Below, in pieces: positions 2,919 through 37,011 of a stretch of DNA of 64,000 bases. Under the pieces are notes generated by a model that was given only the letters and a program-made list of their open reading frames with translations, was not told the DNA's origin and ran no database searches. The position numbers and the translations under genes were made by a program. The number at the start of each line of letters is the position of its first letter. Position 1 is the stretch's first letter. The stretch is from assembly GCA_030593885.1 (NCBI GenBank), contig JAUVGH010000002.1, forward strand, positions 21,922 to 85,921. Reading direction: 5' to 3'. The DNA is from Methanomassiliicoccales archaeon. GTDB taxonomy: Archaea; Thermoplasmatota; Thermoplasmata; RBG-16-68-12; SOIM01.

Positions 2919-5390
2919 TTGGTGGATATGGATGATAATTCGCTTTCGAAGTGGGCTTCCTGCTTCTTGGCCGCGCTCTTCTTCGTTTCTGTTTTTTCGA
3001 CGGCGACCTATGATGGGGGGAGAGGACCGAGTGCATATCTGACGCCCCCAGAGGGTCCTATGGCTGATGAACCCGTGACCTTCACCAACGTCTCGGATCA
3101 GGTTGGGTTCTCCGGAGTGAGAGGGAGAAGGTTCTCTTGGGCAGACTATGATAACGACGGGGACCAGGACCTTCTAATCAACGGCAAGAGGCTCTTCCGG
3201 AACAATGGGGCTCCAGGCTGGAGTTTCACTGATGTCACAACCGATGCGGGGCTTTACGGCTCTGTCTCCAGCGGCGCATGGGCGGATTACGACAACGATG
3301 GATGGTTGGATTTCTACGCCACCGCGGGAATAGGAAGTGAGGACATCCTGTGGCACAACAACGGTGACGGGACCTTTCAGAATGTGACGTATGCTGCAGG
3401 GAACGTGCTGGACAATCTTCCATCGGTATCCGCGGGCTGGGGAGATTACGATGCTGACGGCTTCGTGGACCTATATGTAGCGAATTACGAGTTGGATTAT
3501 GTGGGAATGATGGACATCCTGTGGCACAACAACGGGGATGGGACGTTCGAGAACGTGACCGTGGCTGCAGGAATCGATGACTACACGAATCCCCGTCATG
3601 GGAGAGGAGTTGCTTGGGGCGATTACGATAACGACGGAGACCTTGACATCTACATCTCGAACTACCGGTTGGTGCCCAACTATCTCTGGGAGAACAACGG
3701 TGACGGGACCTTCACTGATAGAGCTTCAGATCGGGGCGTGGAGGGAGATAGGACCCTCTACTCCGGAAACTGGTACTGGGGCCATACGATCGGTTCCGCC
3801 TGGGGGGACATTGACAACGATGGCGACCTTGACCTGTTCACCGCGAACCTCGTGCACAAGGACAACAAATGGCCCAATGTGAGGGGGCTGTTCTGCGACG
3901 ACTCCAAGTTCTACCAGAACAATGGTTCCGCCGAGAACTACAACTTCTATGATATCAGGGATCAGGCGGGGATACCAAAAATACCAGCAGGGGAAACAAT
4001 GTACGACCCGGCTTCTGGCTTGACCTATTACAGGGATGAACTGTATTCAAGTCCCGCCTTTGCGGATTATGACAACGATGGGGACCTGGACCTGTTCGTC
4101 ACTCAGGTGTACTATCTTTCCCACGGCGACTCCCACCTCTTCAGGAACAATGGGAACTCAACATTCACGAACGTCACCGACCAAGCTGGGGTCAAGGTGT
4201 GGAACTCTTGGGGAACGGCCTGGGCGGACTATGACAACGACGGGGATATGGACTTCGTGGTGGAAGGCTCCAGCTATCCGAATCCGTTCTATGAGGTGAG
4301 GCTTTACAGGAACGACGGGACACCCAACAAATGGTTGAAGATCAATCTCAGAGGTTGCTGGAGCAATTGGGCTGGTATTGGTGCAAGGGTCACGGTGACC
4401 AACGGAACTGTCACGCAGATGAGAGAAGTTGAAGGAGGCACTGGGACTGGCTCATCACAGAACTCGATACCTGTCGAGTTCGGGTTCGATGACTACTCTG
4501 GAACGGTCGACATACATGTCAGATGGCCCAATGGTCTTGTTCAGGATATCCTTGGAGTGACATTGAACCAGACATTGGATGTGACGGAGATCAGCTGCCT
4601 CGCCGCACCGACCGCCACTTCTGCAGGGCTATCAGGGACCACCGACCAGGATGTCCAGGTGATCTGGACACCATCGGTCGACGAGGGGTCGCCCTATTTC
4701 GATCATTATGCGATCTACAGAGGCACAACATACGACAAGAAAGGACAGGGATACCAGTTCATCGGTACAGCTCCAGCGGGGACCGCTGACTTCATTGACG
4801 CGGGGATCGGACATGGAGATCCCACCACATACTTCTATTATGTTCAGGTCAACAGCACGACTGGCTTCGGCGCCAGGAGCACGACGCAGGCGGTCAAGTA
4901 CACCAGGTATCTCGAAACGGGAGCCAATCTGGTCTCGATGCCTGTTCTCACTTCGGATTCATCATTGAGCTCAGTTCTCAATACGCTGACATGGGACAAG
5001 GCATGGACCTACGACGCTTCTGATATGGTTGATCCCTGGAAGGCGTTCGATGCTGCGAAGCCATTCAACGACCTTCTGTCGACCAACCCCACTCAGGGTC
5101 TGTGGGTGAACATCATTGCACCAGACTACTACACGATCGCCGGCACGGTCCCCACCAGAACGGACATCGCTCTTTCCGCAGGCTGGAACCTGATTGGATT
5201 CCCGGGATTCACCGGCACATATTCCGTCAATGACCTGATGGCGAGCACTGGAGCTGATAGAGTGGAGAGCTTCAACCAGACAAGTGCGCCTTACCATCTC
5301 CAGGCACTGAGCGGTTCATACAACCTTCTGGCCGGCCAGGCATATTGGATCAATGTCCCAACTGCCACCACTTTGACGGTAGAGAACTGA
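2919..5390 (+). CDS. Secreted FG-GAP/VCBS-repeat protein with ASPIC/UnbV-like domain, FN3 domain and shared C-terminal tandem module
   Basis: N-terminal hydrophobic signal. Repeated 'W(A/G)DYDNDGDxD' Ca-binding FG-GAP-like repeats, then an UnbV/ASPIC-like stretch (GTGSSQNS...VRWPNG), an FN3-like region and a C-terminal 158-aa module (4914-5387) shared with three neighbouring proteins. Confidence 0.8.
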   Translation: MVDMDDNSLSKWASCFLAALFFVSVFSTATYDGGRGPSAYLTPPEGPMADEPVTFTNVSDQVGFSGVRGRRFSWADYDNDGDQDLLINGKRLFRNNGAPGWSFTDVTTDAGLYGSVSSGAWADYDNDGWLDFYATAGIGSEDILWHNNGDGTFQNVTYAAGNVLDNLPSVSAGWGDYDADGFVDLYVANYELDYVGMMDILWHNNGDGTFENVTVAAGIDDYTNPRHGRGVAWGDYDNDGDLDIYISNYRLVPNYLWENNGDGTFTDRASDRGVEGDRTLYSGNWYWGHTIGSAWGDIDNDGDLDLFTANLVHKDNKWPNVRGLFCDDSKFYQNNGSAENYNFYDIRDQAGIPKIPAGETMYDPASGLTYYRDELYSSPAFADYDNDGDLDLFVTQVYYLSHGDSHLFRNNGNSTFTNVTDQAGVKVWNSWGTAWADYDNDGDMDFVVEGSSYPNPFYEVRLYRNDGTPNKWLKINLRGCWSNWAGIGARVTVTNGTVTQMREVEGGTGTGSSQNSIPVEFGFDDYSGTVDIHVRWPNGLVQDILGVTLNQTLDVTEISCLAAPTATSAGLSGTTDQDVQVIWTPSVDEGSPYFDHYAIYRGTTYDKKGQGYQFIGTAPAGTADFIDAGIGHGDPTTYFYYVQVNSTTGFGARSTTQAVKYTRYLETGANLVSMPVLTSDSSLSSVLNTLTWDKAWTYDASDMVDPWKAFDAAKPFNDLLSTNPTQGLWVNIIAPDYYTIAGTVPTRTDIALSAGWNLIGFPGFTGTYSVNDLMASTGADRVESFNQTSAPYHLQALSGSYNLLAGQAYWINVPTATTLTVEN

Positions 5391-5435
5391 GATTGAGCGC
5401 AAAACCCAAAATGAATATATCATTGAAATGACCTT

Positions 5436-6584
5436 ATGGTGATATACATGAAATCCAGAGGGAACGCCATGTGGGCAAAACTGTCAGCCGTTCTTCTTGC
5501 GTCGCTTGTTGTAGGTGTAGCATTCAGCGCGTTCCTTCCCGTCAGGGTGACCGCTGCAGAGGGCGAACCCAGGAAGGTGATGCTGGAGCTGATGACGGCC
5601 ACCTGGTGCGCATCATGTCCATACGCTGACGAGGCAGCGGATGATCTTTCAAGGGACTACGGACCAGAGAGATTCACCGTTCTGCAGTATCATGTTTCAC
5701 TCGATGGCCTGGACACTGTGGAAACCAACGAGAGACGCGACGATTACAATGCAGGACAGACCGGTCTCCCGGCGGCTTGGTTCGATGGGACAGAAGGCGT
5801 TCATTCGGTAGGAAGTCAGGAGGTCAAGTTCTTCTACGACCTGTACAAGGAGAAGATCGATGAGAGGTTAGACAGCCCCAGCCCGATCTCCATATCCCTG
5901 ATGCTGTCTGAATCATCGGGAGAGCTCACGGTCTCGGCTTCATTCGCGAAGTTGAGGACTATACTGGTGCCGGACACCATCCACGCGAGATTCGTCCTGT
6001 TTGAGAATTCGGTTCAGTACAACGCGATACTCTACAACTACGTGGTCAGGGACGTCGAGCTGAAGGATTTCCATTATGATGCACTGCCATACTCCGAGCC
6101 GGTGACTTTTGGGATCGAGTCGGGATGGGATTCCTCCAAGATGGGGGTTGCTGTTTACGTTCAAGCGGAGACGAATGGTGAGGTTCTCCAGTCCGCGAGT
6201 GGGGTTATTGGACCTGAGCCATCGGTCACGATCACTACCGACATAGACGGCAAGGAGATATCGGGCCCAACAACGATTGAGGGAACTGCCTCCGGTGACG
6301 TCGCATGGGTCGAGGTCAGGATTGATGATCAGCAATACACGATCGCAGATGGAACGACCTCCTGGAGCTTCGATCTGGACCCCAGTCAACTCTCGGCTGG
6401 AACGCACACGTTGAAGGTCAGAGCATACTCGAATTCACTGATCTATTCTGATATTGTGGAAGCGGAGTTTGAGACCACAAGCGACCTCTTGCTGTACATA
6501 CTGGTGGTCGTGATCATAGCAGTCGTCTTATTGGTCGCCGCACTCGTGGTCCGGAAGAGAGGGAAGGAAGTATCAGACATCTAG
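5436..6584 (+). CDS. Membrane-anchored extracytoplasmic protein with thioredoxin-like WCxxC domain (start may be 5448 or 5469)
   Basis: Signal/TM at the N-terminus. 'LELMTATWCASCPY' is a thioredoxin-like active-site motif (Cys codons at 5607-5609 and 5616-5618). C-terminal hydrophobic helix plus RKRGK tail acts as a TM anchor. The N-terminal ~250 aa are homologous to the start of the 7896..10469 protein. A TATA-like 'aatgaatatatcatt' lies upstream at ~5410. Confidence 0.6.
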   Translation: MVIYMKSRGNAMWAKLSAVLLASLVVGVAFSAFLPVRVTAAEGEPRKVMLELMTATWCASCPYADEAADDLSRDYGPERFTVLQYHVSLDGLDTVETNERRDDYNAGQTGLPAAWFDGTEGVHSVGSQEVKFFYDLYKEKIDERLDSPSPISISLMLSESSGELTVSASFAKLRTILVPDTIHARFVLFENSVQYNAILYNYVVRDVELKDFHYDALPYSEPVTFGIESGWDSSKMGVAVYVQAETNGEVLQSASGVIGPEPSVTITTDIDGKEISGPTTIEGTASGDVAWVEVRIDDQQYTIADGTTSWSFDLDPSQLSAGTHTLKVRAYSNSLIYSDIVEAEFETTSDLLLYILVVVIIAVVLLVAALVVRKRGKEVSDI

Positions 6585-6650: not shown

Positions 6651-7781
6651 ATGAGGATATCAATGCAACTCAAATCGGTGGCGATCTGCATTCTAGTCGT
6701 CAGCGCCATCGTTCCTTTGGCCGCAACCATCGTCCTCGCACAGGACGTCACGCCTCCTGAGATACTCGATGTAACGCTAACTCCGAAGTACCCTCAAGAA
6801 GCTGATTCGCACGTATTCACCGCAAGAATCATCGATTCTGAGAGCGCCATACAGGTTGTTGAGTTGGCCTATTGCCCACTGGGCCAGGCCTGCCTGTTCA
6901 CAGAGATGTTCGATCTTGATATGGACGATATCTACGACGCTACGGTAGGTCCGTTCATGACTGGTGACGTTTATGATTACTTCATTTCAACCAGGGACAC
7001 CGAGAGTAACTTGAACCAAACAGAAATCACCTGGGTTAAGGTCGCCGCTGACATAACCTTCGATTTCCAGCTGAGTGCCAGCATGATTGTGCAGGGCAAG
7101 AGCCTATGGGCAAACGGCACGGCGTTGTACGATGACAACACGACGACACCTGTGGAGACCTCAGACGTCGGCCTTACGATAGATGGAACGTCCGTAGATG
7201 TTACTGGCACCACCGACGACAAAGGAAATTTCAGCATCCCTTTCACCGCACCTGAGACTGCCGACGACTATGAGGTGAATGTCACGGTCACTAACAGATC
7301 TTTGTCCAATTACAGTCTGGCTCCTCTCAACACAACCCTGCCAGGAGACGCTGACGGGGACGGTCTCACTGATGATGAAGAGATTGCGCTTGGCACTGAT
7401 CCTCAGGATGCGGACACAGATGATGACGGACTGGACGATTATGAGGAAGTCAACGCGGGCGATGACGGTTACACAACCAACGCGACCAACAGCGATACGG
7501 ACGGGGACGGGCTCAATGACTGGGAAGAGATCAACGAAGGAGAGGACACTTTCCTCACTGACCCGACGAACGAGGACACGGACGGGGACGGAGCCACGGA
7601 CTCAGAGGACTGGGACCCTACCGACTCGAGCGTCCAGGAGGAACCTAAAGAAGAGGACCTGACCTGGATGTATTTGATGATCGTCGTAATCGTGGTCGTT
7701 GTTATTGTATTGGCTGTCTTACTTATGCGAAGAAGGTCTGGCGCAGAAACATTAGAACCTGAGGAAGAAGATTCATCCTAG
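6651..7781 (+). CDS. Secreted protein with thrombospondin type-3-like Ca-binding repeats (DxDxDGxxDxxE) and C-terminal TM anchor
   Basis: Signal peptide. Run of 'DADGDGLTDDEE / DTDDDGLDDYEE / DTDGDGLNDWEE / DTDGDGATDSED' repeats. C-terminal hydrophobic helix followed by RRRS. Confidence 0.7.
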   Translation: MRISMQLKSVAICILVVSAIVPLAATIVLAQDVTPPEILDVTLTPKYPQEADSHVFTARIIDSESAIQVVELAYCPLGQACLFTEMFDLDMDDIYDATVGPFMTGDVYDYFISTRDTESNLNQTEITWVKVAADITFDFQLSASMIVQGKSLWANGTALYDDNTTTPVETSDVGLTIDGTSVDVTGTTDDKGNFSIPFTAPETADDYEVNVTVTNRSLSNYSLAPLNTTLPGDADGDGLTDDEEIALGTDPQDADTDDDGLDDYEEVNAGDDGYTTNATNSDTDGDGLNDWEEINEGEDTFLTDPTNEDTDGDGATDSEDWDPTDSSVQEEPKEEDLTWMYLMIVVIVVVVIVLAVLLMRRRSGAETLEPEEEDSS

Positions 7782-7840
7782 CCCTGCTGATTCTCTCTCG
7801 ATACCAGAATGTTATCAACTGGACTGAAGTTCCCGCAAAA

Positions 7841-7850
7841 TACTATATAT
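7841..7850 (+). promoter_or_regulatory. Archaeal TATA box (tactatatat) with a purine-rich BRE-like element upstream, serving the 7896 gene. A Shine-Dalgarno 'aggaggt' lies at 7884-7890.
   Basis: AT-rich TATA-like octamer ~45 bp upstream of the ATG at 7896. Strong SD 6 nt upstream of the ATG. Confidence 0.4.
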
Positions 7851-7895
7851 GTTATATGGTATAGTCTACATATCTGGAGGCAAGGAGGTCCATCC

Positions 7896-10469
7896 ATGAG
7901 ATGGGGTTTCAAAAAGATGTGGGCTATCATCATAGTCTTTGCAATGTTCGGCATTGCATTTGTGGGCGTGGCAACTGAGAACGAGAATAACGCTGTTTCT
8001 TTGAACGACTCTGTTACAACTACGTTTTCGAACGAGGGGACCAGAGGTCCTGGTGCACCCAGAGTGGTGTTGATGGAACGCTTCACCAATGTTGGATGCG
8101 GTCCATGTGCGCCGGCGAGCATCAGGGAGGATCAATTCATCCAGGACCATAGTGTCGATGACCTGGCCGTGATCAAGTATCACATGTATTGGCCGGATGG
8201 AAACGACCCTATGTACCTCATGAACACCCAACCCCAACTGGATAGAAGGGACTTCTATGGAACGATCGGGTTCGTGCCCTATTCGATAGTGGACGGTCTT
8301 CTCCTGTCGGACGATGCCCAGCAGAATGGGAACTATCCGATCACTTACAGCCTCTACCAGAGGTTCTACGATCAGAGAAGAGCATTACTGAGCCCGTTCA
8401 CGGTAGATGTGGATGGTGTTCTCGGAGCTACCATGGGTACGGTTTCGGTCAACGTGACTGCAGTGGATACAGTTCCGGTTGGTGCCTTGAAGGTCAGATT
8501 GGCGCTGTATTTCAATGACGTGGAATATGCCACTTCACCGGGCAGCAATGGGGAGAAGAGGTTCGGATTCGTCTTCATGGACTTCATCCCGGACATCGAC
8601 GGAATGGACCTGACGATCTCGATGGGACAGACCGTGAACTTCATCCAGACATTCACTATCCCCACCGAGATACCGGCAGGCGGGGGAGATCCGGCAGTAC
8701 CGGTGGAGAGAGCTCAGCTGGGAGTGGTTGCTATGGTCCAGGACGAGGTCACGAGAGAGGTCCACCAGGCAGGTGTCCTCTCATTCACCGACCTGTCCAT
8801 TAATCCGATGGGGATACTGACAACCCCGTTGAACCCGAATCTAGGGGACTTGGTCGGCATTTCCGCAAGGGTCGTTAACAACGGTGAAGACATCAGCAAC
8901 GCATATGTCACTGCATACATCGATCAGGTTGGGGGAGATCCCATCGGTCCTCCGATATCCACGGGTCCGATGTTCAAGGGTCAGATGAAGATAGTCGGCC
9001 TCGGGGCATGGGACACCACGGGACAGCCGGGGGTCAGGAAGGTGGTCGCCAAAGTGGACATCGACGGTGACTACTACGAGTCCGACGAGGTGAACAACGT
9101 TGTCACCAAGGACGTGAACGTGGCAGCCCAGTTCGATGTCGGCATTTCCCAGATAGGTCCGTTCAATGAAGGGATGATGTATCCCATGAGCAACTACTCG
9201 TTGGACGGGAGCATAAAGAACTTCGGACAAAACGCGATGGGAGATTTCGATGTGGACATACAGCTGTACCAGCTCGGCCTGCCTGATGTTCCTGTTTCGA
9301 CCTTCATGGATGATATGGAAGGAGGCATTGGAGGTTGGACCGAGAGCGGCGGGAGTTGGGCGTATGGAGCCCCATCACCGGCACCCGGAGCGCATTCGGG
9401 AGCTAGTGTCTGGGCAACTGTGCTCACCGGCAATTACCCGTCAAATACGGTCGATTGGCTGTATTCCCCGATAGTGAGCATACCGTCGAGCGCAAGTTCC
9501 GCGAGCCTGAGCTTCTGGAACTTCTATTCGTTCCAGTTTGCGTCAAAACCACCCAATGATGTGCACTACGATTGCGGGAACTTGTGGATATCCACAGACA
9601 TGGGTGTCACATGGGAGATGGTGGAACATTTCAAGGCCAACAATGGTGCTTGGAATCAGGAGACATACGATCTGACTTCATATGTCGGGCAATCAGTGAG
9701 ATTCGCCTTTGAACTCGCTGCAGATGGAAGCGGAGGCCAATTGGGATGGTACATAGATGACTTCGAGGTGACCTCAATGGTTCCGACGGAGACACTGGTC
9801 TGGAACACGACAACCAGGATGTCGACCATCCTTGCATCTGGCGGAGTTGATTCGCTCATTTGGAACCAGAAGATCATCACTGGAGGCCCACACAAGCTAT
9901 ACGTATGGACGCCTCTTGGAGGAGATCAGAACCCTGACAACGACCTGAGCACACTGACATTCGACATCGATGACACCAAGTGGAGGAACGTGGTGACCCC
10001 CGTAGCGTCACTGGTTTCGTCCCCCTTGACACTCACCGAGACCAACATCGCGAACATTGTTGCACCTTCAGCGCCTGCCTTGACCTCGGTCAGGACCTAC
10101 GACGCAGTAACAGGCACGTGGTTGGGATACGATCCGGCCAAGCCCGCCAACAGCCTTTCGGCAGTGGATCACAGGATGGGCATGTGGGTAACGAATCCTT
10201 CAGGTGGATACATAGACTTCACCGGAACGATACCGGGCATAACTGTTGACATACAGCTTGAAATCGGGTGGAACCTCATAGGATATCCATCAATGACGGA
10301 CAGGACCGTCGCAGACGCTCTGTCCACGATCACATACGAAAGGATAGAAGGGTTCGATGCGACAGGACCGTATCATCTGAGGGAACTGACTGGCAGCGAT
10401 TGGATGACGGCTGGACAGGGCTACTGGATACACGTATCCTCGCAACAGATGTGGTCAGTGAACGCTTAG
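7896..10469 (+). CDS. Secreted multidomain protein: thioredoxin-like CxxC domain, CARDB-like domain, choice-of-anchor-J/MAM-like domain, and the shared C-terminal tandem module
   Basis: The ORF track starts at 7809, but the SD-preceded ATG at 7896 (MRWGFKKMWAIIIVFAMFGIA, TM/signal) is more plausible. 'NVGCGPCAP' is a Trx-like motif (Cys codon at 8097). A CARDB-like region follows ('VVAKVDIDGDYYESDEVNNV'), then a choice-of-anchor-J/MAM-like region ('GGWTESGG...LWISTDMGVTWE...GWYIDDFEV'). The C-terminal module is at 9990-10466. Confidence 0.75.
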   Translation: MRWGFKKMWAIIIVFAMFGIAFVGVATENENNAVSLNDSVTTTFSNEGTRGPGAPRVVLMERFTNVGCGPCAPASIREDQFIQDHSVDDLAVIKYHMYWPDGNDPMYLMNTQPQLDRRDFYGTIGFVPYSIVDGLLLSDDAQQNGNYPITYSLYQRFYDQRRALLSPFTVDVDGVLGATMGTVSVNVTAVDTVPVGALKVRLALYFNDVEYATSPGSNGEKRFGFVFMDFIPDIDGMDLTISMGQTVNFIQTFTIPTEIPAGGGDPAVPVERAQLGVVAMVQDEVTREVHQAGVLSFTDLSINPMGILTTPLNPNLGDLVGISARVVNNGEDISNAYVTAYIDQVGGDPIGPPISTGPMFKGQMKIVGLGAWDTTGQPGVRKVVAKVDIDGDYYESDEVNNVVTKDVNVAAQFDVGISQIGPFNEGMMYPMSNYSLDGSIKNFGQNAMGDFDVDIQLYQLGLPDVPVSTFMDDMEGGIGGWTESGGSWAYGAPSPAPGAHSGASVWATVLTGNYPSNTVDWLYSPIVSIPSSASSASLSFWNFYSFQFASKPPNDVHYDCGNLWISTDMGVTWEMVEHFKANNGAWNQETYDLTSYVGQSVRFAFELAADGSGGQLGWYIDDFEVTSMVPTETLVWNTTTRMSTILASGGVDSLIWNQKIITGGPHKLYVWTPLGGDQNPDNDLSTLTFDIDDTKWRNVVTPVASLVSSPLTLTETNIANIVAPSAPALTSVRTYDAVTGTWLGYDPAKPANSLSAVDHRMGMWVTNPSGGYIDFTGTIPGITVDIQLEIGWNLIGYPSMTDRTVADALSTITYERIEGFDATGPYHLRELTGSDWMTAGQGYWIHVSSQQMWSVNA

Positions 10470-29000: not shown

Positions 29001-31271
29001 TGCTCGATTGCACTTGACTCCAAGGACCAGGTCCACATTACTTACCAGGATGTGGGGAACGGACCTCTGAAGTACGCCAAGAAGTTGGACGGTGTATGGA
29101 ATGTCGGGATAGTCGGGGATGTGGCTCCTGCAGCAGGCTGGTACAACTCGCTGGCCATTGACAGCAACGATCAACCCCACGTGGCTTACCTCAGCTGGGC
29201 CAGCTTCGCAATCAAGTACACATACTTCGATGGGAAGAAGTGGACGTTCATTCATGTGGACAGCAAGGGATGGAAACAGGTCTCTTTGGCGCTTGATTCC
29301 AACGATCAGCCTCACTTGGCGTACAACGACAGGACCGAACTTGGTGCGAAGTACACTTACTGGGATGGTTCCACCTGGGTGATGCAGATTGTCGACGATT
29401 CCTCTCCTTGGGTGGGCACATACGCGAATCTGGCATTGACCGAGGATGACAAGCCGGTAATGTCGTATTATGATGAGACCCGAGGCGATCTGAAGTTCGC
29501 CAGACCCGAGTATCCGGCTTCGAACACGGCCAAAGTGGACTTCGTCCACAGCGTCGGGATGTACAATTCATTGGAGTTGGATGACTTCGGGGCAGCCCAC
29601 ATCAGCTACTACGACAATGAAGCGGGCGAGCTGAGGTATGCAAAATGGGTACCTGGGGGCTTCAGTGTGGAAACGGTGGATGCATCTGGGGACGTGGGTA
29701 TGTACACCTCTCTTGAGTTGAATTCTCTTGGCTATCCGATGATCTCGTACTATGACGAATCGGGCGGAAATGGGTTGTTCCACACGGAAGGTGCAACAGA
29801 CGGGAGCGAGGCGTGGACGGAAGATGTCCAATTGAACGAGAGAGTCAAGAGGGACATAGGATCGCCTGAAGTAGAGGTCGAGAAGAAGACGGTCCACGTG
29901 GTCTGGGACGAGTTCAATCTGTACTCGAGACAGTCCAACATCTTCTACAAGAGGAGCAATGACAACGGAACGGCCTGGCCGTATCCAGATATCGCCATCA
30001 ATGATGATACGACCACTGGACAGATATTCAGTCAGAATCCCAGCATGCAGGTGAACGGTGCGACCATCGAGGTTGCGTGGGAACGCAGCGTGAGCGTGGG
30101 GATAGGACTGTCCAATGAGGAATTGATATATGACATTAACAGGGCGAACGGAGGCCCTTCTGGCTGGGGTCCGGACCGAGTAGTGTCCCCCAATCCGCCG
30201 ATCTTCCCGCGATTCAAGGCGTACCAGGCGTCCATGAGGACGGTTGGCAACGACAGGCACATGGTCTGGATATTCTGGGGCGGGGTCACGGTACAAGAGA
30301 TCGAGTACTTCGGGATATCGGATGATCTGTTGGAAGTCGGAGACTTGACCGAGGGCAGGAAGGGGGCCTCCAGCGTTTTCGTGATAGACCCATTGACCCT
30401 CAGGAATGAGATAATCGTGGTGGGAGGCAAGAACCAATCTGGATTCCTGGACAGGGTCACGAAGGTCGATGCGAGGACCGGGGCCGAACAGGATTACTGC
30501 AACCTCCCAACTGGTCTGGCCTATACGTCGGTTGTCTGGGACGACAAGGATTCGGTGTTCATCTTCGGAGGACTTTCGAGCACTGGAGCTGAGGCGAGTA
30601 TTCTGAGAGTGAATCTGTCGACCGCGGTCCCAGGAGACATGTGCACGGACACAGGGTTTACACTTGCTTCTGGGAGATACGGCACTTCAGCAGTTTACGA
30701 TGAATCGACCGATACCGCGTACGTGTTCGGGGGTACAGATGGTGCTGGGACATACTCCGCGGAGATAGTGAAATGGCCCAGATTGGGCGTGCCAGTAGGT
30801 TTCGGTATTCTGCCTTCCGAGAGGGCTTTCACTTCGGCAGTCTGGGATCACGATAGAAACAAGGCTTTCGTTTTCGGAGGCCTGGGTCAATTGGGACATC
30901 TGGACGAGATAGTTGAGTTCAGGGACGTTGGTGTACCAGATGTTGCCGTTCTTTCCAATGCTAAGCTGCCAACGGCAAGGTCCGCCACGTCAGCTGCATA
31001 CGACGGAACTTACGCATACATCATCGGCGGCGTATCGAACACCGGAGCCATCTCCGAGATCGTCAGGTTCAACCCGAGAGGCGACTGGACGGCAGGCGTG
31101 ATATTGGCCTGTACTGAGCTCCCTCAAGGACTGGAGAACGCATCGGCATCGATGTCAGCAAGCGCCAGATCGCACATCGGCGGGATATTCGTGGTGGGCG
31201 GTGAGAACGAGACTGCCATCATGTTAGATGTCTGGAGCTATAAGCCGGCCTACTGGGGGTACCTCGACTAG
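26019..31271 (+). CDS. Secreted 1750-aa repeat protein: about 25 copies of a ~45-aa 'HISYYDxTNGDLKYA...W....VD..GDVGxYTSLAxD' repeat, 3 BNR/Asp-box motifs, C-terminal Kelch-like repeats
   Basis: N-terminal TM/signal. Highly regular 45-aa periodicity through aa 60-1230. Asp-boxes 'RSDDKGKTW', 'RSDDNGDTW', 'RSNDNGTAW'. Kelch-like 'FIFGG/YVFGG/FVFGG/YIIGG' blades at the C-terminus. Confidence 0.85.
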   Translation: MMLGRNRGATRILAIAIVLILPVLGVMDLSRSNLWTLEETFESTFDLMYAAMGFTWTTQTIDTRGSMGPYTSLELDSNELPHISYYDETNGDLRYVDRFGSGWLITIVDSAGDVGLYTSLALDQFDRPHISYYKKSTGDLKYAYHDGNAFQITTVDHLRNTGLFTSMVLDSSDTPYISYYEKDLGALKFAVLNGTDWETYYLDDVGDVGLYTSIALDPDENPSISYYDKTRGDLKLIRFNGTAWQTPRIIDAGGDVGLYASLAIGNNGVPHISYFDKTKGDLKFAVAQQWFMDIKTISSAGVRGMYTSLVLGSDGLAHISYYDKTNGDLRYAFGMGFDWQDMDVHMDGDTGLYTSIEVNSENRPLISYVGPSFEGSADPAVGVDCDRGDSCSYVHMVWVETYQTSRNAYQRVYYQRSDDKGKTWDMDIRPISGEWRHFASFPNMLMSGPPVISVIGKTIHVIWAHEFTVGFASRGGIFYQRSDDNGDTWLPSEVRVDDVPSSAPSPALPESVSMYADEDYINVVWMSDLKIYSTRSLVSEARTSSGWVTEFGKHSSVVADVSGRTFIASFDESRGDLLISASGGFGEFDTEVIDWTGIVGQHTSIALGPGTYPYPSIAYYDETNGDLRFAEWNGSHWLISTVDSVDDVGHYASLKIDSNALAHIAYYDLTKGELRYARWDGMSWLLDIVDDFGDVGQYASLDLDRDDLPSISYYNATGKELKFTSWNGTAWNNEMVDDSADVGKYSSLAVDSEHHPHISYYDETNKHVKYAFHNGTAWEIELADGTDLVGEYTSIALESGNVPFISYYDMGNTNLKLTRKSPSGWMSEVLDDDGNVGKYTSVATDMFNEVYISYYDETNQRLKLYSTSLGWRRQAVQRDEMISYPLYGEARDKYRTASTPDIDGDEGRVHVVYSESISPKGDLKFAQWNGTQWRTETIDEEGMVGMDTSLVVDSFDRPHICYFDQSNTRLKYTHWTGTEWQIEVVDDGIDVGRECSIALDSKDQVHITYQDVGNGPLKYAKKLDGVWNVGIVGDVAPAAGWYNSLAIDSNDQPHVAYLSWASFAIKYTYFDGKKWTFIHVDSKGWKQVSLALDSNDQPHLAYNDRTELGAKYTYWDGSTWVMQIVDDSSPWVGTYANLALTEDDKPVMSYYDETRGDLKFARPEYPASNTAKVDFVHSVGMYNSLELDDFGAAHISYYDNEAGELRYAKWVPGGFSVETVDASGDVGMYTSLELNSLGYPMISYYDESGGNGLFHTEGATDGSEAWTEDVQLNERVKRDIGSPEVEVEKKTVHVVWDEFNLYSRQSNIFYKRSNDNGTAWPYPDIAINDDTTTGQIFSQNPSMQVNGATIEVAWERSVSVGIGLSNEELIYDINRANGGPSGWGPDRVVSPNPPIFPRFKAYQASMRTVGNDRHMVWIFWGGVTVQEIEYFGISDDLLEVGDLTEGRKGASSVFVIDPLTLRNEIIVVGGKNQSGFLDRVTKVDARTGAEQDYCNLPTGLAYTSVVWDDKDSVFIFGGLSSTGAEASILRVNLSTAVPGDMCTDTGFTLASGRYGTSAVYDESTDTAYVFGGTDGAGTYSAEIVKWPRLGVPVGFGILPSERAFTSAVWDHDRNKAFVFGGLGQLGHLDEIVEFRDVGVPDVAVLSNAKLPTARSATSAAYDGTYAYIIGGVSNTGAISEIVRFNPRGDWTAGVILACTELPQGLENASASMSASARSHIGGIFVVGGENETAIMLDVWSYKPAYWGYLD

Positions 31272-31282
31272 AGAGTGAATTC

Positions 31283-33424
31283 ATGGAATCTCACAGGAAG
31301 AACAAGACACGCAACTTCGCAAGAGGGGCAGCCCTGTTCATATCCACGTTCATTCTCTTGATGAGCTTTGTCGTCATCGGCCCAGCGACCGAGGTTCAGG
31401 CTGGAAAGATGGTCCGCGGAATAATCTTCTTCGACACGAACTGGACCCTGGCCGACAGCCCCATATGGGTGGAGGGGAGCATCCTGTTGCCCCAGGGAGT
31501 CAACTTGACCATAGAGCCAGGGGTGGAGATCAGATTCAACGGGAACTTCACAATGTGGGTGAACGGCAACTTCACATCTCTCGGGACATCGGCCAACAAG
31601 ATTGTGTTCAAGTCCAACAGCACCACGCCAGGATACAACGACTGGTTCAAGATAAGGGCGAATGTGACCAGCAGGTTCGAGGTTTCCCACACTCAATTCC
31701 AGAACGCCTTCTCGGCTATCGAACTCATGGGAAGGGACGGGGACTCTTTCACGAACCTCTCGTTCGAGGATTCGTTCATTGGCATTGCAGCACTCTGGTC
31801 ATCTGGCGTCTCGGTAACGAACAGTTCGTTCACGGATGTCTATCACGGTCTCAAACTGACCAACAGCAGCAACATGGTGAAGAACAACGTGTTCACTGGA
31901 GGGAGAATAGCGACAGACATCTCATGCAACGACGTGGTCAAATTCTGTATAGACAACGTGGTCGAGGGGAATGATTTCTCTGACATGGAAGGTGGAGTGT
32001 ATCTTAGATCCGATTCACAGTGGACTGAGCTCTCAAAAAACAGAATCCACAACAATACATTCCTAGATGTGGACGGACCGATATCCATCTATAACACCGT
32101 GGGTGCCTCAGAGAAGAACGTCATTGAGAACAACTCCATGGAAGCTGGCGGATACGGGGTCTTCCTTACGGGCACGGCGAACAACACGGTTCAAGGTAAC
32201 GACATCACCGGTTTCAGGGAGAGCGTTAGTCTCTACGGAGCAGAACAGAACCTGGTGACCAGGAATGTGATGTCCAGAGGATTAGACGGTATCGTCGTGA
32301 GGGACGGGAACATTGGAAACGAGATATCATTCAACAACATTGTCTCACTAACTGGCTGCGGTGTGGCATTGGTACAAGGAACATCCGACAACCTGATACA
32401 TCACAACAATCTGCTTGACAGCGGCTATAACGGATGCGATCCTGGACTGGGCAATCGATGGGACAACGGCTATCCTTCAGGGGGGAACTTTTGGTCGGAC
32501 TATACGGGTCCAGATGCATTCAACGGGCCCAACCAGGACATACCCGGGGCAGATGCGGTCGGGGACACACCTTACGATACGAGAGGGAGTGGCAGGGACA
32601 ACTATCCACTGCTATGGATGCCGTTCGAAAACATCCCGCTCACGAAACTCAGCGCAGAACTGACCGGACAGAACTTCGAGAACGTCACCATCTCATGGGA
32701 CCTTACCTGGCCCAATGGAAATGTATCTCTGAACATCACCAGGTTTGACGTCTTCAGATCGGATTTATATGAGGAGAGTAGGTCTGGATATCAACTTCTG
32801 GCCTCTTTATCGAATGACACTTTTGAATACGTGGATCTAAAAGCCGGGGAAGGGAATGCCTCCAACTACTTCTACTACGTTTGCGCGGTCAACAAGACGA
32901 GCGTCTCTCACTGCAGCTTGGACCAAGTTGGCAAGTTCACGCGCGCACTGGACACAGGATGGAGCTTGATCTCGGTACCTCTGATCCCGAACGACGCAAG
33001 GACGGCAAATGTGCTGCAAACGACCGCCTTCGACCAGGTGCTCACTTACGATGCGAGGGATTTCGATGACCACTGGAAGGGATATTCTCTGATGAAAATG
33101 CACAACGATATGCCAGAGATGGATGTGTTCAAGGGTTACTGGATCCATGCTATGAGCGACTCCAACCTGACTGTCGCGGGACTGGTACCGACCGTTACCA
33201 GGATACATCACGCCACCGGCTGGAACCTGGTGGGCTACCCGTCCTTCACGAACTTGACGTTCGAATCTGCCTTGGAAGGAAAGCTCTGGGATTCTGCTGA
33301 GGGCTTCGACAATTCATCGATTCCATTCCACTTGAAAGAGTTGTCCGGATTGGACATGATGACTGCTGGCCATGGATATTGGATAAACTTCTCGACCGGT
33401 GGGGTTTGGACGGTTAGGAACTAA
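31283..33424 (+). CDS. Secreted right-handed beta-helix (NosD/pectate-lyase-like) protein with FN3 domain and shared C-terminal tandem module
   Basis: Signal peptide. Parallel beta-helix repeat signatures (N..F.....GI.L..S..N.I.NN), a 'GGNFWSDYTGPDAFNGPNQDIPGADAVGDTPYD' motif, FN3-like region, and the C-terminal module at 32945-33421. Confidence 0.85.
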   Translation: MESHRKNKTRNFARGAALFISTFILLMSFVVIGPATEVQAGKMVRGIIFFDTNWTLADSPIWVEGSILLPQGVNLTIEPGVEIRFNGNFTMWVNGNFTSLGTSANKIVFKSNSTTPGYNDWFKIRANVTSRFEVSHTQFQNAFSAIELMGRDGDSFTNLSFEDSFIGIAALWSSGVSVTNSSFTDVYHGLKLTNSSNMVKNNVFTGGRIATDISCNDVVKFCIDNVVEGNDFSDMEGGVYLRSDSQWTELSKNRIHNNTFLDVDGPISIYNTVGASEKNVIENNSMEAGGYGVFLTGTANNTVQGNDITGFRESVSLYGAEQNLVTRNVMSRGLDGIVVRDGNIGNEISFNNIVSLTGCGVALVQGTSDNLIHHNNLLDSGYNGCDPGLGNRWDNGYPSGGNFWSDYTGPDAFNGPNQDIPGADAVGDTPYDTRGSGRDNYPLLWMPFENIPLTKLSAELTGQNFENVTISWDLTWPNGNVSLNITRFDVFRSDLYEESRSGYQLLASLSNDTFEYVDLKAGEGNASNYFYYVCAVNKTSVSHCSLDQVGKFTRALDTGWSLISVPLIPNDARTANVLQTTAFDQVLTYDARDFDDHWKGYSLMKMHNDMPEMDVFKGYWIHAMSDSNLTVAGLVPTVTRIHHATGWNLVGYPSFTNLTFESALEGKLWDSAEGFDNSSIPFHLKELSGLDMMTAGHGYWINFSTGGVWTVRN

Positions 33425-33459: not shown

Positions 33460-33696
33460 TCAATCCCCAGCGTACAGAAACTCGTCTATCTCTTCGCTAA
33501 GGCGGGCGTTCTTCTTGCCGAAGTGTTCAGGTTTCATATCCAGCAAACTCAAGTTCCCCTTCCGATCTCTTCTTTCTTCCAGCCAAAACCCAATCGCTTG
33601 AGTGACTGCGGTTCCGACTGTGATTCCCTCGAGAGCAGCTCTGGCCTTGAGTCGTCTAAAAGCCTTCTCATCCAAGTTTCGGATTGTGACATCCAT
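33460..33696 (-). CDS. Ribbon-helix-helix DNA-binding protein (FitA/VapB-like antitoxin-type), orphan
   Basis: 'MDVTIRNLDEKAFRRLKARAALEGITVGTAVTQAIGFWLEE' matches the RHH antitoxin N-terminus. The ORF-track extension to 33813 is rejected in favour of the internal ATG at 33696. No cognate toxin is adjacent. Confidence 0.5.
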   Translation of the reverse strand: MDVTIRNLDEKAFRRLKARAALEGITVGTAVTQAIGFWLEERRDRKGNLSLLDMKPEHFGKKNARLSEEIDEFLYAGD

Positions 33697-33780: not shown

Positions 33781-33902
33781 AACGATTCCCATCGGGAATG
33801 GACCCGCTGACACTTCTTCTGGCCGCTTCCGTTTTTACTCTGATTGGCGTGATTGCAGGGATCGCTACGGTACTCTTCCCGGGACTTGGTAGAATTTCCT
33901 AG
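33781..33902 (+). pseudogene. Truncated, diverged duplicate of the tctA 5' end (upstream leader plus first ~33 codons; MDPLTLLLAASVFTLIGVIAGIATVLFPGLGRIS*)
   Basis: 33781-33886 is ~87% identical to 37267-37372. The first 60 nt are ~95% identical ('aacgattcccatcgggaatggacccgctgacacttctt...'). Confidence 0.6.
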
Positions 33903-36451
33903 TACCCGACGAACGTGAACTTCGACGAAGGACCATCTATCGAAATCTGGTATCCTTCACCTTGAAGGACATCTACGTCATAGACTCCCTGAGGCATCTC
34001 TTTTGCGTGATACTTCCATTCGCCGAACGTTGAATACGCCATGCCGGCAACGTCGGGAATCGCATCACAGTACCAGTCCAAGGAGTTGTTCTCAACGGGC
34101 TTCAACGGGAGGGCAAATGTATCCGAGCCCCACGAATAAACGATTGACATGACGCCGACGCTGTAGGTGCTCGACCCCCGCCAGTTCACATCCCTGACCG
34201 GAACAACAAGGTAATACCACTGAGCGCCGGTCGCCAGCGCGTCTGTGTGCACGGCGGTCGCCCTGGGCAGCCCAGTGGCGGGGACGGTGGCCAGAAGGAA
34301 GTAGTCAGTCCCGGGATATCCTCTCAGACCCTCTGGTGTCATGGAGTAGTAGACTTGATATGTTCCGTTCGGCGGCTCGAATCCGGCTATCTCGCTCCAC
34401 TCAATGACCACATCGCTTCCTTTTATCGTGGCTGTGATCTCCCTGGCGGTCGTTGCCGGGTCGAATCCTCCAAGCGGATAAGGAGGCCATTCACCGAAAT
34501 CTATCATCGAGGCGGGAAGACCAGTGAAGGTGAAGGCGGTTGGAGCGCTGAATGAGACCGAGTACCCCTCGCCGAGAATCATCGCGCGATCGGGGTCTCC
34601 ATCTCCCGGAACCGACAGCCACTTTCCGTCCTCAAGGTAGCTGACGGAGAGGGCTCCTGTCGAGGACGAGAAAGCACTCAGGTTGCTTACCCAGCCGACG
34701 GATGAGTAGTTGACCCATGGATATGGACTGAGAGGAAGGGAGAACGTGGACATGCCCGCGGGGAACTCGTAGGTCCACTTGCCAGCAGTATTGCTGGTCG
34801 CGCTGCTCCTGTTGAGGGTGGAATTGTGCGCTCTCATGACGTAGTATTTTGTGCCAGGAGTGGCCGCGGCACCGGGTATTGTCCAGGACGTTACATTGCC
34901 TACGTCGACGTGCGACGAGAAGTCGAATTCAGTCTGACTGTCCGCAACGTACAGGAAGTAAGAGTCGGCCATGGGCGATCGTCGCCAGCTCAGAACGATG
35001 TCCGCGCCCACGGCCTTCGCCGTCAGCTCGCGCGGAACACCTGGCGCGGGGACGGAGTAGAACGGGTAGAAGTCCTTCCCCTTGGTCGGGATATAGTACG
35101 GCGTGTCCCCGAACCCGTCGGGCCCCGGTATGTCCTGGTTTATCCCTTTGAAGAGGTCGTCTCCCACGTAGTCCGACCAGTGGTTCCCCCCGGATGGATA
35201 CAAGTCGTTCCAGAACGAGCCGTCGGACGAGTCTGATGCCTGCATCCCGTTGTACATGATCCAGTTGTGGTAGACCCTGTGCCCCTGTCCGTCCTCCAGT
35301 CGTATCCCTTCCGCGTTCGCCTCGACCGTGTTGTTGAACACATTCACGAAGCGGGAATCTTCCACCCTCAGACCGATTCTGTTGCCGACCAAGGCATTGT
35401 CTCTGATGATCGTGGACTGAGTCATGTAAACCTCGATCCCCCAGTGTCTGCTGTCCGACACGTGGTTGCCCGCAATCACATTCCCCACGCCGCCGGACAT
35501 GCTACCATCGTCAAAGATTCCCATGCTGTTGTCATGCAGCCGGTTGTTCAGCACAAGCGTGCCACTGCTGCGGTATAGAAATATCCCAAAGGTGCACCTA
35601 CTGATGTCGTTCTCCGTGATGCTCAGTGAGCCTCCAATCACATGGACACCTGCGTAGAACCCATCGATTACGTTCCCATGGATCCTGACATTGGCACCAG
35701 GGTGGACCTCGATTCCGTCGAAGCTGATGGGCGAATGTATGGTGTTGAAGGAGAATTCTCCGAATTCGATCTTCCACGCCTCAATCCCGTCGCCTTCAGA
35801 GGCCACTATCCTGCTCTTCGTGATGATGACCCTCCTCGCGTCACCGATGTTGACAGTGGATCGAGGGCTGAGAATATCGACCTGTTCCAGAACGAGGTCG
35901 CCGCGCATTCCCGCCCCCATGGTCCCCTTATACACGGTTCCATTCACCATGGTCGCGTTGCGGGCGAAGATCGAGCCGTCTAACCGCGCCACAAGTTGCC
36001 ACGGCAACGACGGCAGTGGAGTGACGTTCCAGGTCATCAAGACAGGTTCAGTAACAGTACCGCGGATATCCAATGTGCCAAAAACGGTGATGGTGGCGTT
36101 TAAGTCCAGAAACTGGTTGAACTGTACCTCGACGCCCGGTCCGATCGTGAGGGCCGCGCCCGATAAAATAGTCATTCCCTCCTCGACCCAGTATGGATTT
36201 CCCGTGGCGTTCCAGGTGATGTTGCCTGTGATGATTCCACCCACTCGCGTCCCGGTCAGGCGGTACGGTGGGGAGTCCGCGGCGGGCTCTTCGGATAGCA
36301 AGGAGGACAGGGGCGAGGAGATGGCGGTGAGGAGCAGGAGAGCGCACACCACAATGATAGGCAGCACTCCCTTTCTCGCACTGGGACGTGTGTCACTGCT
36401 CATGTTCGCCCTCTCCATTCGGAGTGCATGCGCATTCCCTCGAATGACCAA
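33899..36451 (-). CDS. Secreted beta-helix (NosD-like) paralog with two FN3-like domains and two copies of the shared C-terminal module (likely start 36418 or 36403)
   Basis: Paralog of 31283..33424, sharing the beta-helix and the 'GGNHWSDYVGDDLFKGINQDIPGPDGFGDTPYY' motif. TM/signal after an internal Met. C-terminal 281 aa (33902-34744) contain module-FN3-module. Confidence 0.8.
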   Translation of the reverse strand: MVIRGNAHALRMERANMSSDTRPSARKGVLPIIVVCALLLLTAISSPLSSLLSEEPAADSPPYRLTGTRVGGIITGNITWNATGNPYWVEEGMTILSGAALTIGPGVEVQFNQFLDLNATITVFGTLDIRGTVTEPVLMTWNVTPLPSLPWQLVARLDGSIFARNATMVNGTVYKGTMGAGMRGDLVLEQVDILSPRSTVNIGDARRVIITKSRIVASEGDGIEAWKIEFGEFSFNTIHSPISFDGIEVHPGANVRIHGNVIDGFYAGVHVIGGSLSITENDISRCTFGIFLYRSSGTLVLNNRLHDNSMGIFDDGSMSGGVGNVIAGNHVSDSRHWGIEVYMTQSTIIRDNALVGNRIGLRVEDSRFVNVFNNTVEANAEGIRLEDGQGHRVYHNWIMYNGMQASDSSDGSFWNDLYPSGGNHWSDYVGDDLFKGINQDIPGPDGFGDTPYYIPTKGKDFYPFYSVPAPGVPRELTAKAVGADIVLSWRRSPMADSYFLYVADSQTEFDFSSHVDVGNVTSWTIPGAAATPGTKYYVMRAHNSTLNRSSATSNTAGKWTYEFPAGMSTFSLPLSPYPWVNYSSVGWVSNLSAFSSSTGALSVSYLEDGKWLSVPGDGDPDRAMILGEGYSVSFSAPTAFTFTGLPASMIDFGEWPPYPLGGFDPATTAREITATIKGSDVVIEWSEIAGFEPPNGTYQVYYSMTPEGLRGYPGTDYFLLATVPATGLPRATAVHTDALATGAQWYYLVVPVRDVNWRGSSTYSVGVMSIVYSWGSDTFALPLKPVENNSLDWYCDAIPDVAGMAYSTFGEWKYHAKEMPQGVYDVDVLQGEGYQISIDGPSSKFTFVGY

Positions 36452-36510
36452 TAGGTTGGACTGTCTTTAAATCTATGCCCGCTTCTAAGGGTTTCCGCCT
36501 CTAGAGGATC

Positions 36511-37011
36511 TCAGACCAGCCCGATACCGTGCACTTTGGAGTCACTGTCGAAACAGTAAGGGACAGTTACCGTTATGCTCGCGAACCACGTGATGCCGAG
36601 CGTGTCGTACTCGTCCACGGGATCCGTCCTGAGGAGCAACGCGGAGGAGCCGGCGGCGTTACCCCCTGTCGAGGGCGGCAGGTTGGTATCTTCATAGTCT
36701 GAGTCCGTCTCCCACGTATAGTTGACCTTGAAGTAGTGGTAAGCCTCTGGACTCCTCGCAGACCTGTTGTCGTACCAAGTCACGTTGAACCAGATATCGA
36801 TCTGGTCGTCTTCGTCGATATCCAAGGAGGTGGGAACCACCACGAACCAAACGTCGGCGCTACAGGAATGCGCTTCAGTGTTCCCGCCCGACGACGCTCC
36901 GAATATTGTTGCTGCTCTGGCCACCTGGGGCAAGAACATGAGGACGCTCACTACCAATGCGAAGCTCACATATCTAAACACAGTCTTTTTCATTTTTCCA
37001 GTTCTTCTCAT
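36511..37011 (-). CDS. Small secreted protein, unknown function (likely start at 36993, MKKTVFRYVSFALVV...)
   Basis: Signal peptide with 'ARA' cleavage-like site. Trp/Asp-rich. No recognisable family. Confidence 0.45.
   Translation of the reverse strand: MRRTGKMKKTVFRYVSFALVVSVLMFLPQVARAATIFGASSGGNTEAHSCSADVWFVVVPTSLDIDEDDQIDIWFNVTWYDNRSARSPEAYHYFKVNYTWETDSDYEDTNLPPSTGGNAAGSSALLLRTDPVDEYDTLGITWFASITVTVPYCFDSDSKVHGIGLV

Follow-up and report, generated by a model that had tools for sequence, protein, structure and literature searches.

The closest described counterparts of the largest protein considered here are the CLIPPER adhesins. The DUF11 domain (PF01345) was renamed CLIPPER in a 2025 study (PMC12617251), and one such domain has been solved (PDB id: 9IFR), with an isopeptide bond between Lys715 and Asn806 and Asp748 as the catalytic residue (PMC12617251). 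CLIPPER adhesins, e.g. Acinetobacter silvestris B9T28_05395, have a signal, a distal N-terminal domain, a stalk of tandem CnaA-like Ig domains and an anchor, which takes the form of an OmpA-like domain or of a sortase or archaeosortase signal. The other devices to be compared are the C-terminal domain (CTD) of type IX secretion system (T9SS) substrates (Por_Secre_tail), the SLH domain and the PGF-CTERM/archaeosortase signals, all of which lie at the very C-terminus of numerous exported passengers that are unrelated to one another. Uncultured Thermoplasmata abound in sediments, and to our knowledge almost nothing is known about their envelopes. Here, a 34-kb locus (positions 2919–37011) with nine genes for putative surface proteins is described in a 64-kb stretch of DNA (the window) from an uncultured Thermoplasmata archaeon (contig JAUVGH010000002.1). 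The locus is bounded by alaS and tctA and is likely a mosaic of at least four separately inherited surface units on an older alaS–RecJ–tctA backbone. Its components belong to known kinds with one exception: a C-terminal module, which alone departs from known anchoring devices.

The gene order and the domain calls come from a map of open reading frames (ORFs) of the window combined with Pfam and NCBIfam scans. All nine surface proteins carry one N-terminal hydrophobic segment that follows basic residues, as an earlier note on this DNA had stated when it assigned signal or transmembrane (TM) segments to all of them, and these segments suggest that the nine proteins are exported by Sec. Such a single-signal architecture is found in nine of the 11 genes between alaS and tctA and in none of the 26 others in the window (Fisher p = 4e-7); the clustering of exported-protein genes is real and non-random. 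N-glycosylation sequons reach 3.2 per 100 amino acids (aa) in the surface proteins, compared to 0.2–0.4 in alaS and RecJ. Together with the signal-like N-termini and the extracellular-type domains, this enrichment supports the cell-surface nature proposed earlier. Several C-terminal TM anchors had also been noted, and there are three: the 382-, 376- and 4557-aa proteins end in a TM segment with a basic tail. The 1750-, 850- and 166-aa proteins have no recognisable anchor. The Pfam and NCBIfam scans of the 64 kb found no sortase, archaeosortase, AglB/oligosaccharyltransferase or secretion genes, in line with the earlier remark that no dedicated secretion or sortase enzyme is visible. PGF-CTERM, PEF-CTERM and LPXTG-type signals gave no NCBIfam or Pfam match, and the three TM tails are free of such motifs.

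The nine proteins would be encoded by at least four transcription units that accreted around the housekeeping backbone. The first unit, next to alaS (98–2881, minus strand), which forms the left flank of the locus, would be a four-gene operon on the plus strand. It comprises an FG-GAP/ASPIC beta-propeller protein (823 aa, 2919–5390) with a signal segment, the propeller, an Fn3-like domain and a C-terminal double module; an Omp28-like/thioredoxin-like (Trx-like) CxxC protein (382 aa, 5436–6584) with a WCASCP motif, a Big_7 Ig domain and a C-terminal TM segment; an acidic TSP3-repeat protein of the Ca-binding type (376 aa, 6651–7781) with a TSP3_bac match and a C-terminal TM segment; and an 886-aa protein (7809–10469, with a probable start near 7896) with an Omp28-like CGPC motif, a choice-of-anchor J/MAM domain and a C-terminal double module. 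The second unit would be the gene of a 4557-aa DUF11/PKD giant (12187–25860, plus strand), which is divergent from the gene of a RecJ/GAN-type DHH nuclease (10532 to ~11914, minus strand). In the giant, a signal is followed by a tip domain on a predicted stalk of 29 Ig domains of the CLIPPER type, then by four PKD domains and finally by a TM anchor at the C-terminus. In the third unit, the gene of a 1750-aa multi-propeller/BNR/Kelch protein (26019–31271, plus strand) is probably co-transcribed with that of a 713-aa NosD-type parallel beta-helix protein (31283–33424, plus strand), which has an Fn3-like domain and a C-terminal double module and begins 11 nt downstream. The fourth unit would be a mobile cassette of two minus-strand genes, one for a 166-aa exported protein of a family without assignment (36511–37011) and, next to it, one for an 850-aa NosD-type beta-helix protein (33899–36451) that ends in two Fn3-like-plus-beta segments. 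This cassette would have been inserted into the 5' end of tctA (37284–38975, plus strand), the right flank of the locus, and would have left a duplicated tctA start behind. Retention at the surface would rely on two devices, three type-I C-terminal TM tails and three modules that bind an envelope component non-covalently.

The nine genes had been described as consecutive. Their number stands, and they are not consecutive because RecJ, a 78-aa gene of the FitA-like ribbon-helix-helix (RHH) type (33460–33696, minus strand, PF22513) and a 5' remnant of tctA (33781–33887, plus strand) lie inside. The earlier domain calls of FG-GAP/ASPIC, TSP3, a DUF11 giant, a 1750-aa repeat protein, two beta-helix paralogs and a small secreted protein match the ORF, Pfam and NCBIfam results. 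The first four genes run FG-GAP, Trx-like, TSP3 and Trx-like/MAM, and not two Trx-like genes followed by TSP3.

Loci of relatives separate the left half of the locus from the rest. At the highest RecJ identity (95–96%, loci L001 and L002), the gene order is as in the window; near-identical loci are found in a Thermoplasmata metagenome-assembled genome (MAG; JAGLME010000015, RecJ 96%) and, at 95%, in another MAG that bears the label Methanomassiliicoccales. These matches agree with the Thermoplasmatota affiliation guessed in the earlier note. In L019 and L020 (RecJ 76% and 72%), the run of alaS (minus strand), FG-GAP, Trx-like, TSP3 and the 886-aa homolog (plus strand), RecJ (minus strand) and the giant (plus strand) is intact. 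The identities to the window in L019/L020 are 77/77% for alaS, 76/72% for RecJ, 72/72% for FG-GAP and 80/76% for the N-terminus of the giant, and 66/53% for the Trx-like protein, 63/49% for TSP3 and 71/55% for the 886-aa protein. Thus, the giant and FG-GAP evolve like housekeeping genes, and the middle three evolve faster. At lower RecJ identity the picture changes. In L008 (RecJ 49%), FG-GAP, RecJ and TctA are directly adjacent and the rest of the locus is absent; the FG-GAP ortholog of L008 is 37% identical, module included. In L004 and L006 (RecJ 47%), alaS lies directly beside RecJ, and the opposite side is occupied by a 505-aa CARDB protein. The locus as a whole is missing from this site in L003, L004, L006 and L008. 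In L003, RecJ adjoins a pair of radical-SAM HMPTM and geranylgeranyl reductase genes at a distance of 1.5 kb, which is 29 kb in the window. The two genes of this pair are adjacent both in the window (40897–43893) and in L003 (12888–15864), and the difference in spacing adds to the evidence that surface genes have driven an old housekeeping neighbourhood apart. Judged from gene order, the conserved sub-units are FG-GAP–Trx–TSP3(–886), the divergent RecJ–giant pair and the 166–850 pair.

Two observations concern individual relatives. Adjoining the FG-GAP ortholog in the high-GC L008 is a 2489-aa ORF without any Pfam domain (13868–21337, minus strand), which may be an uncharacterised surface protein or spurious. 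The locus in CP070767.1 (L018) at first resembled a Trx–TSP3 pair in a foreign context accompanied by a stand-alone 122-aa module gene. This reading was rejected: the 'gene' is only the terminal part of a larger ORF. A run of ~100 N (9473–9571) truncates the module-bearing gene just upstream of the Trx-like/TSP3 pair, so that the 122-aa 'gene' is an artefact of the gap and L018 is of use for its right flank only.

The right end of the locus is marked by a scar. The segment 33781–33887 is repeated directly at 37267–37373 (plus strand), with 92 of 107 nt identical (86%) and 38 exact bases; apart from those in the giant, the window has no other long repeat. The right arm is the functional 5' end of tctA with the true start codon at 37284. 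The left arm, a copy of the tctA upstream region and of the first ~30 codons, encodes MDPLTLLLAASVFTLIGVIAGIAT and then a stop. Of the 15 differences between the arms, ten fall at third codon positions. Between the arms lies the 166–850 pair, which is kept in six other contigs (L012–L017) at 67–81% (166 aa) and 73–86% (850 aa) identity in other surroundings, the 166-aa gene being always directly upstream of the 850-aa gene in the loci sampled. Nucleotide similarity to the cassettes of L012 and L015–17 spans exactly 33892–37025 and starts ~5 bases past the end of the remnant. Most simply, the 3.1-kb cassette would have entered the 5' end of tctA by an insertion that duplicated this end. The scar indicates that the right end of what had been called a megalocus was added separately. 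The same assembly that holds L019, GCA_975957395.1, keeps the left half of the locus there while its 166–850 pair (L012) lies among unrelated housekeeping genes, with alcohol dehydrogenases on one side and an epimerase on the other. In L015–17, the pair is accompanied by a 640-aa beta-helix protein with the module, a 718-aa protein and a 1822-aa protein. The 718-aa protein (L015 14642–16798 and L016 9128–11284, both minus strand) contains PKD domains and 47-aa blades that are 41% identical to those of the 1750-aa protein. It also includes a segment of the insert found in the giant (residues 3904–4025, 49%). This fusion points to domain shuffling among surface genes between lineages. Near the cassette in L015, an alpha-2-macroglobulin-type protein (>1471 aa) is encoded at 1–1408.

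In the earlier note, the nine genes had been seen as a single coordinated system for a surface layer, adhesion or glycan processing; if so, selection would have kept them together and their products would act jointly. The strong non-random clustering of exported proteins and the presence of a common C-terminal module in both halves fit this proposal. The half from alaS to the giant is also syntenic down to ~72% RecJ identity, but this conserved stretch contains the cytoplasmic RecJ, so the synteny of the left half reflects descent and not function. The joint occurrence of beta-helix paralogs and the 166-aa gene in L015–17 also fits the proposal. Against it, the 166–850 pair is unlinked in GCA_975957395.1 and is flanked by an insertion scar in the window. 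At this site, deeper relatives have none of the nine genes other than FG-GAP, the transcription units number at least four and lie on both strands, and domain scans of the window reveal no linking enzyme, transporter or regulator. Compared with relatives, the sub-units are conserved, and the full gene set is not syntenic beyond genus level; non-synteny in relatives, which the earlier note had named as a ground for refuting its proposal, is seen for the locus as a whole. A single system is improbable. Even less probable is that the locus is a horizontally acquired, foreign adhesin island in a housekeeping region. The surface genes are absent at the site in relatives at 47–49% RecJ identity, the cassette has its duplication scar, and an orphan antitoxin-type RHH gene lies next to it, all of which would suit an island. 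However, a deviation in GC or codon usage from the flanks, proposed earlier as a check, is not seen: the GC content, GC content at third codon positions (GC3) and codon usage of the surface genes are indistinguishable from those of the flanking housekeeping genes. The GC3 values are 0.61–0.72 in the surface genes and 0.62–0.73 in the housekeeping genes (with the exception of a 131-aa acylphosphatase gene at 0.49), and the GC and codon distances of the surface genes lie within the housekeeping range. No integrase, transposase, tRNA or terminal repeats bounding the 34 kb were found, and the window contains no tRNA or Rfam RNA. The divergence of the left half keeps pace with that of its neighbours (FG-GAP 72% and giant 76–80%, compared to 77% for alaS and 72–76% for RecJ), which argues for vertical descent. 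Signs of translocation are confined to the 3.1-kb cassette, whose closest copies lie in contigs of related Thermoplasmata. There is no pointer to a recent foreign origin of the whole 34 kb.

A mosaic of separately inherited units on the housekeeping backbone thus remains the likely explanation. What weakens it is that the operon structure is read from strand and spacing alone, that the relatives are a handful of genomes sampled at graded RecJ identity, each with 10 kb on either side, and that L018 is broken by assembly gaps and contributes its right flank only. If correct, the locus would show how a surface repertoire is built up: native operons accrete on a stable backbone, small cassettes change sites, domains are reshuffled and lineages differ in repeat number.

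The giant is predicted to be a fibrillar adhesin of the CLIPPER type. Pfam finds 30 stretches of DUF11 (E = 0, 1449 bits) and NCBIfam 30 stretches of TIGR01451, together with four PKD domains. Residues 283–3878 consist of 29 units of exactly 124 aa, and a 30th domain is split by an insert. A signal-like segment (residues 16–34) precedes the units and a TM segment (residues 4528–4546) closes the protein. The mean pairwise identity of the 29 units is 54%, with a maximum of 89% between the units at residues 2639 and 2763. The most similar units are clustered at residues ~2639–3258 (20084–22072), where Tandem Repeats Finder (TRF) reports a 372-nt array (20084–22072, 75%); this clustering of near-alike units suggests that the repeats have expanded locally. 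The L020 ortholog is 4062 aa long, i.e. 495 aa or about four repeats shorter. The isopeptide triad is present almost throughout: K9 in 29 of 29 units (with a one-residue shift in the first), D43 in at least 28 of 29 and N99 in 29 of 29. Its spacing (9/43/99) matches that of the crystallised CLIPPER construct (8/41/99), and each CLIPPER domain of the giant is probably locked by a Lys–Asn isopeptide bond. Three of the 29 units (starting at residues 655, 903 and 1647) have a C-[AG]-G-C motif at unit positions 73–76. It recalls the tetrapeptide disulfide (CTTC) of CLIPPER, but is found elsewhere in the domain.

The overall plan of the giant resembles that of the CLIPPER adhesins, namely a signal, a distal N-terminal domain, a tandem stalk of CnaA-like Ig domains and an anchor, and PKD_4 co-occurs with CLIPPER in the giant, as reported for archaeal proteins (PMC12617251). 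Unlike these adhesins, which are anchored by an OmpA-like domain or by sortase or archaeosortase signals, the giant ends in a single C-terminal TM helix. It further differs from the adhesin compared here in having 29 perfectly phased 124-aa units and a tip domain (~250 aa, N-terminal) with no Pfam or PDB sequence match and no resemblance to a known adhesive family. In the known CLIPPER domain the isopeptide bond was observed, whereas in the giant it is predicted from the triad. From the typical size of an Ig domain, the stalk is estimated to be more than 100 nm long. The giant would thus be a clear archaeal example of a CLIPPER-type adhesin, probably isopeptide-locked and carried on a plain TM helix.

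The most unusual part of the locus is the C-terminal double module, marked by the motif 'GWNL...GYWI'. Its copies are at 4896–5387 (residues 660–823 of the 823-aa protein), at 9978–10466 (C-terminus of the 886-aa protein) and at 32933–33421 (C-terminus of the 713-aa protein), all on the plus strand. An AlphaFold2 model of the copy in the 713-aa protein is of high confidence and has no neighbours in the PDB. These segments of ~160 aa are 37–38% identical to one another. A profile of the module matches only these three ORFs in the window, with E = 1e-52 to 1e-59 (3.5e-57 for the 823-aa protein and 5e-52 for the 886-aa protein). The module is internally duplicated, all-beta and usually preceded by an Fn3-like domain. 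Its two homologous halves of ~75–90 aa align with each other in hhalign (99.5%, E = 2e-22), and its conservation falls mainly on aromatic residues (W, Y) and on Gly. A shared C-terminal module in several proteins had been proposed before; it holds for the 823-, 886- and 713-aa proteins and does not extend to the 850-aa protein. Two diverged half-modules were considered in the latter on the basis of motif-level likeness and were dropped because the profile and hhalign tests were non-significant (probability <5%).

The module is without a match in Pfam-A and NCBIfam, relaxed thresholds included, and without a sequence match in the PDB, and literature searches on its motif and on Thermoplasmata surface domains returned nothing relevant. 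It nonetheless belongs to a large family. An exhaustive profile search of 1.84 billion representatives gave 27,551 clusters at E <= 1e-3, 10,663 at E <= 1e-10 and 2,811 at E <= 1e-30; a word-indexed search gave only short fragments. In 136 of the 147 top representatives (93%), the module ends no more than ten residues from the C-terminus. Two or more full copies occur in nine of the 147, and in three the module is followed by a TM-like tail. The passengers are diverse: among 63 representatives, 29 are beta-helix/NosD proteins and seven are BNR proteins, and FG-GAP, GLUG, LamG, DUF11, C1/C11 peptidases and a GDSL lipase also occur. The named carriers are Thermoplasmata/Methanomassiliicoccales MAGs and one Cloacimonadota bacterium. 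For two small proteins that consist of the module only, P0038 and P0046, the genomic contexts did not point to a taxon.

Three features of the module suggest an anchoring role: it sits C-terminally on diverse passengers, it alternates with TM tails (within the locus, the module and a C-terminal TM tail are mutually exclusive, with three proteins each) and it follows the choice-of-anchor J domain. It is quite possible that the module anchors its passengers at the surface by binding an envelope component. The earlier note had left open how these proteins are anchored; for three of them the TM tails provide an answer, and for the three module-bearing proteins the module is a testable candidate, drawn from a large family outside the Pfam-A, NCBIfam and PDB copies searched. 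More tentatively, the module could be an undescribed and widespread surface-retention domain with at least 27,000 clusters at 50% identity and a fold absent from the PDB. It shares with the T9SS CTD, SLH and PGF-CTERM devices the extreme C-terminal position on many unrelated exported passengers, the occurrence of several paralogous carriers per genome region and, in the locus, the alternation with TM anchors. It differs from them in that it is ~160 aa long and has neither a sequence match nor a TM or charged tail. We know of no processing enzyme for it. If it is a retention domain, the module would be the counterpart of these three devices in uncultured lineages, would explain how large exported enzymes and adhesins are held at the surface without sortases or TM anchors, and would allow tens of thousands of metagenomic proteins to be annotated better.

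Other roles have to be weighed. The module could be a carbohydrate- or substrate-binding domain, similar to a carbohydrate-binding module, that targets secreted enzymes to polymers or to other cells and does not retain them on their own surface. The abundance of beta-helix/NosD (29 of 63) and BNR (seven of 63) passengers, typical of glycan-active proteins, points in this direction, as do the conserved W, Y and Gly residues, the internal tandem copies and the modest constraint between orthologs. However, the module is strictly at the extreme C-terminus in 93% of the top members, non-enzymatic passengers such as the FG-GAP propeller, the Trx-like/choice-of-anchor J protein and DUF11 proteins carry it too, and within the locus it is found exactly in those large proteins that have no TM tail. 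Substrate binding is the main rival of the anchoring role and somewhat less probable. That the module is a sorting signal for a dedicated export or attachment machinery, perhaps cleaved and analogous to the T9SS CTD or to the signals of archaeosortase substrates, is quite improbable. Such a signal would be expected to occupy the extreme C-terminus of thousands of proteins with very different passengers and to recur several times per genomic neighbourhood, as the module does, but the module has no hydrophobic or charged tail, the PGF-CTERM, PEF-CTERM and Por_Secre_tail models are unmatched, some proteins contain internal or multiple copies, no candidate machinery was found in the 64 kb, and a 160-aa domain is far larger than known sorting tags. 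Neither the Por_Secre_tail/type B CTD models nor their Ig-like beta-sandwich fold are matched by the module, which thus fails to group with the T9SS type.

Retention at the cell's own surface by the module has observations of its own to contend with. Between FG-GAP orthologs, the module is 49–60% identical and its passenger 81–82%, i.e. the module is not unusually conserved. Some proteins contain internal tandem copies, e.g. five stretches in a Cloacimonadota PKD protein; these copies and the many glycan-active-looking passengers fit substrate binding equally well. Signal cleavage is not predictable with the tools used, and some of the proteins could be anchored at the N-terminus, which would make a second anchor unnecessary. 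A further arrangement considered for the module was docking with the TSP3 protein in the style of cohesin and dockerin. The likeness consists of Ca-binding Asp-rich repeats (TSP3) on one partner and a beta module of ~150 aa on others, encoded side by side; the idea was rejected, as there is no fold or sequence evidence for it.

The smaller surface proteins are fusions of familiar parts. The 823-aa protein matches Pfam FG-GAP_3 (E = 3e-39) and UnbV_ASPIC (E = 3e-14). The 382-aa protein has Big_7 (E = 3e-12), a TM segment at residues 354–372 and the WCASCP motif. The 376-aa protein has TSP3_bac (E = 7e-12), a TM segment at residues 340–358 and 22% D+E; its gene follows the Trx-like gene in all six loci that have the latter. 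In the 886-aa protein, a choice_anch_J domain (NF038128, 38.3 bits at a cut-off of 30) occupies residues 507–654 and the module follows at 724–886. NCBIfam choice-of-anchor domains sit upstream of alternative C-terminal anchors. The 886-aa protein also contains a GCGPCA motif and a sub-threshold match to Omp28_seleno (E = 1e-10).

In both the 382- and the 886-aa protein, a CxxC motif is found early in the mature protein. These motifs agree with the earlier description of two thioredoxin-like-domain proteins, and the family models stay below threshold. Pfam thioredoxin gives no match in either protein, PDB thioredoxins are found only at E values of 0.6–1.2, and the NCBIfam Omp28 models NF033782 and NF045500 score 21 and 41 bits at cut-offs of 150 and 200. 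Homologs of the Trx-like protein bear PF06764 or the names thioredoxin (JGI) or thiol-disulfide isomerase, which lends some support to a label that stays tentative. The two proteins are similar to the Omp28 family, the Omp28-related selenoprotein and DUF1223-type proteins in being exported and having CxxC (or UxxC) shortly after the signal peptide. Unlike the Omp28 family, they are archaeal proteins and not Bacteroidota lipoproteins, and they are fused to Big_7 and a TM segment or to choice-of-anchor J and the module.

The 1750-aa protein matches Kelch and BNR and consists of at least 17 motif-identified 47-aa blades in three arrays, BNR/Asp-box segments and a C-terminal Kelch propeller. The 850-aa protein matches NosD (E = 5e-21) and is a paralog of the 713-aa protein, with about 27% identity over about 550 aa as established via orthologs. 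Both share right-handed beta-helix repeats and export with NosD-type proteins (PF05048/PF13229), and differ from them by fusion to Fn3-like domains and, in the 713-aa protein, to the module. The TIGR04247 (NosD) model scores 53 and 64 bits for the beta-helix proteins at a cut-off of 300, and nos genes were not found nearby. These proteins are more likely to be glycan-active or adhesive than to be copper chaperones. The 166-aa protein has no Pfam, NCBIfam or PDB match.

Among the interrupting genes, RecJ matches NCBIfam RecJ_archaeal (E = 1.4e-163, 545 bits at a cut-off of 360) and has no hydrophobic segment; it is a cytoplasmic housekeeping protein that interrupts the cluster and stands outside the surface set. 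The FitA-like RHH gene (PF22513, E = 1.3e-6, 28.7 bits at a cut-off of 27), located between the 713-aa gene and the tctA remnant, is of the antitoxin type and an orphan with no adjacent toxin. The remaining genes of the window are housekeeping genes, including AspRS, geranylgeranyl reductase, the radical-SAM HMPTM enzyme, Hdr-like Fe-S proteins, S19e, eIF6, GcvP and Pus10. A low-GC patch at 55800–59700 (0.45–0.47 compared to about 0.53) has ORFs without significant family matches, with weak hints of helix-turn-helix (TrmB/Crp-like) and HEPN domains, and may be a small defence or mobile islet. Near the end of the window, a 141-aa RNase H/RVT_3-like protein (62866–63291, plus strand) is encoded beside a DUF655 gene.

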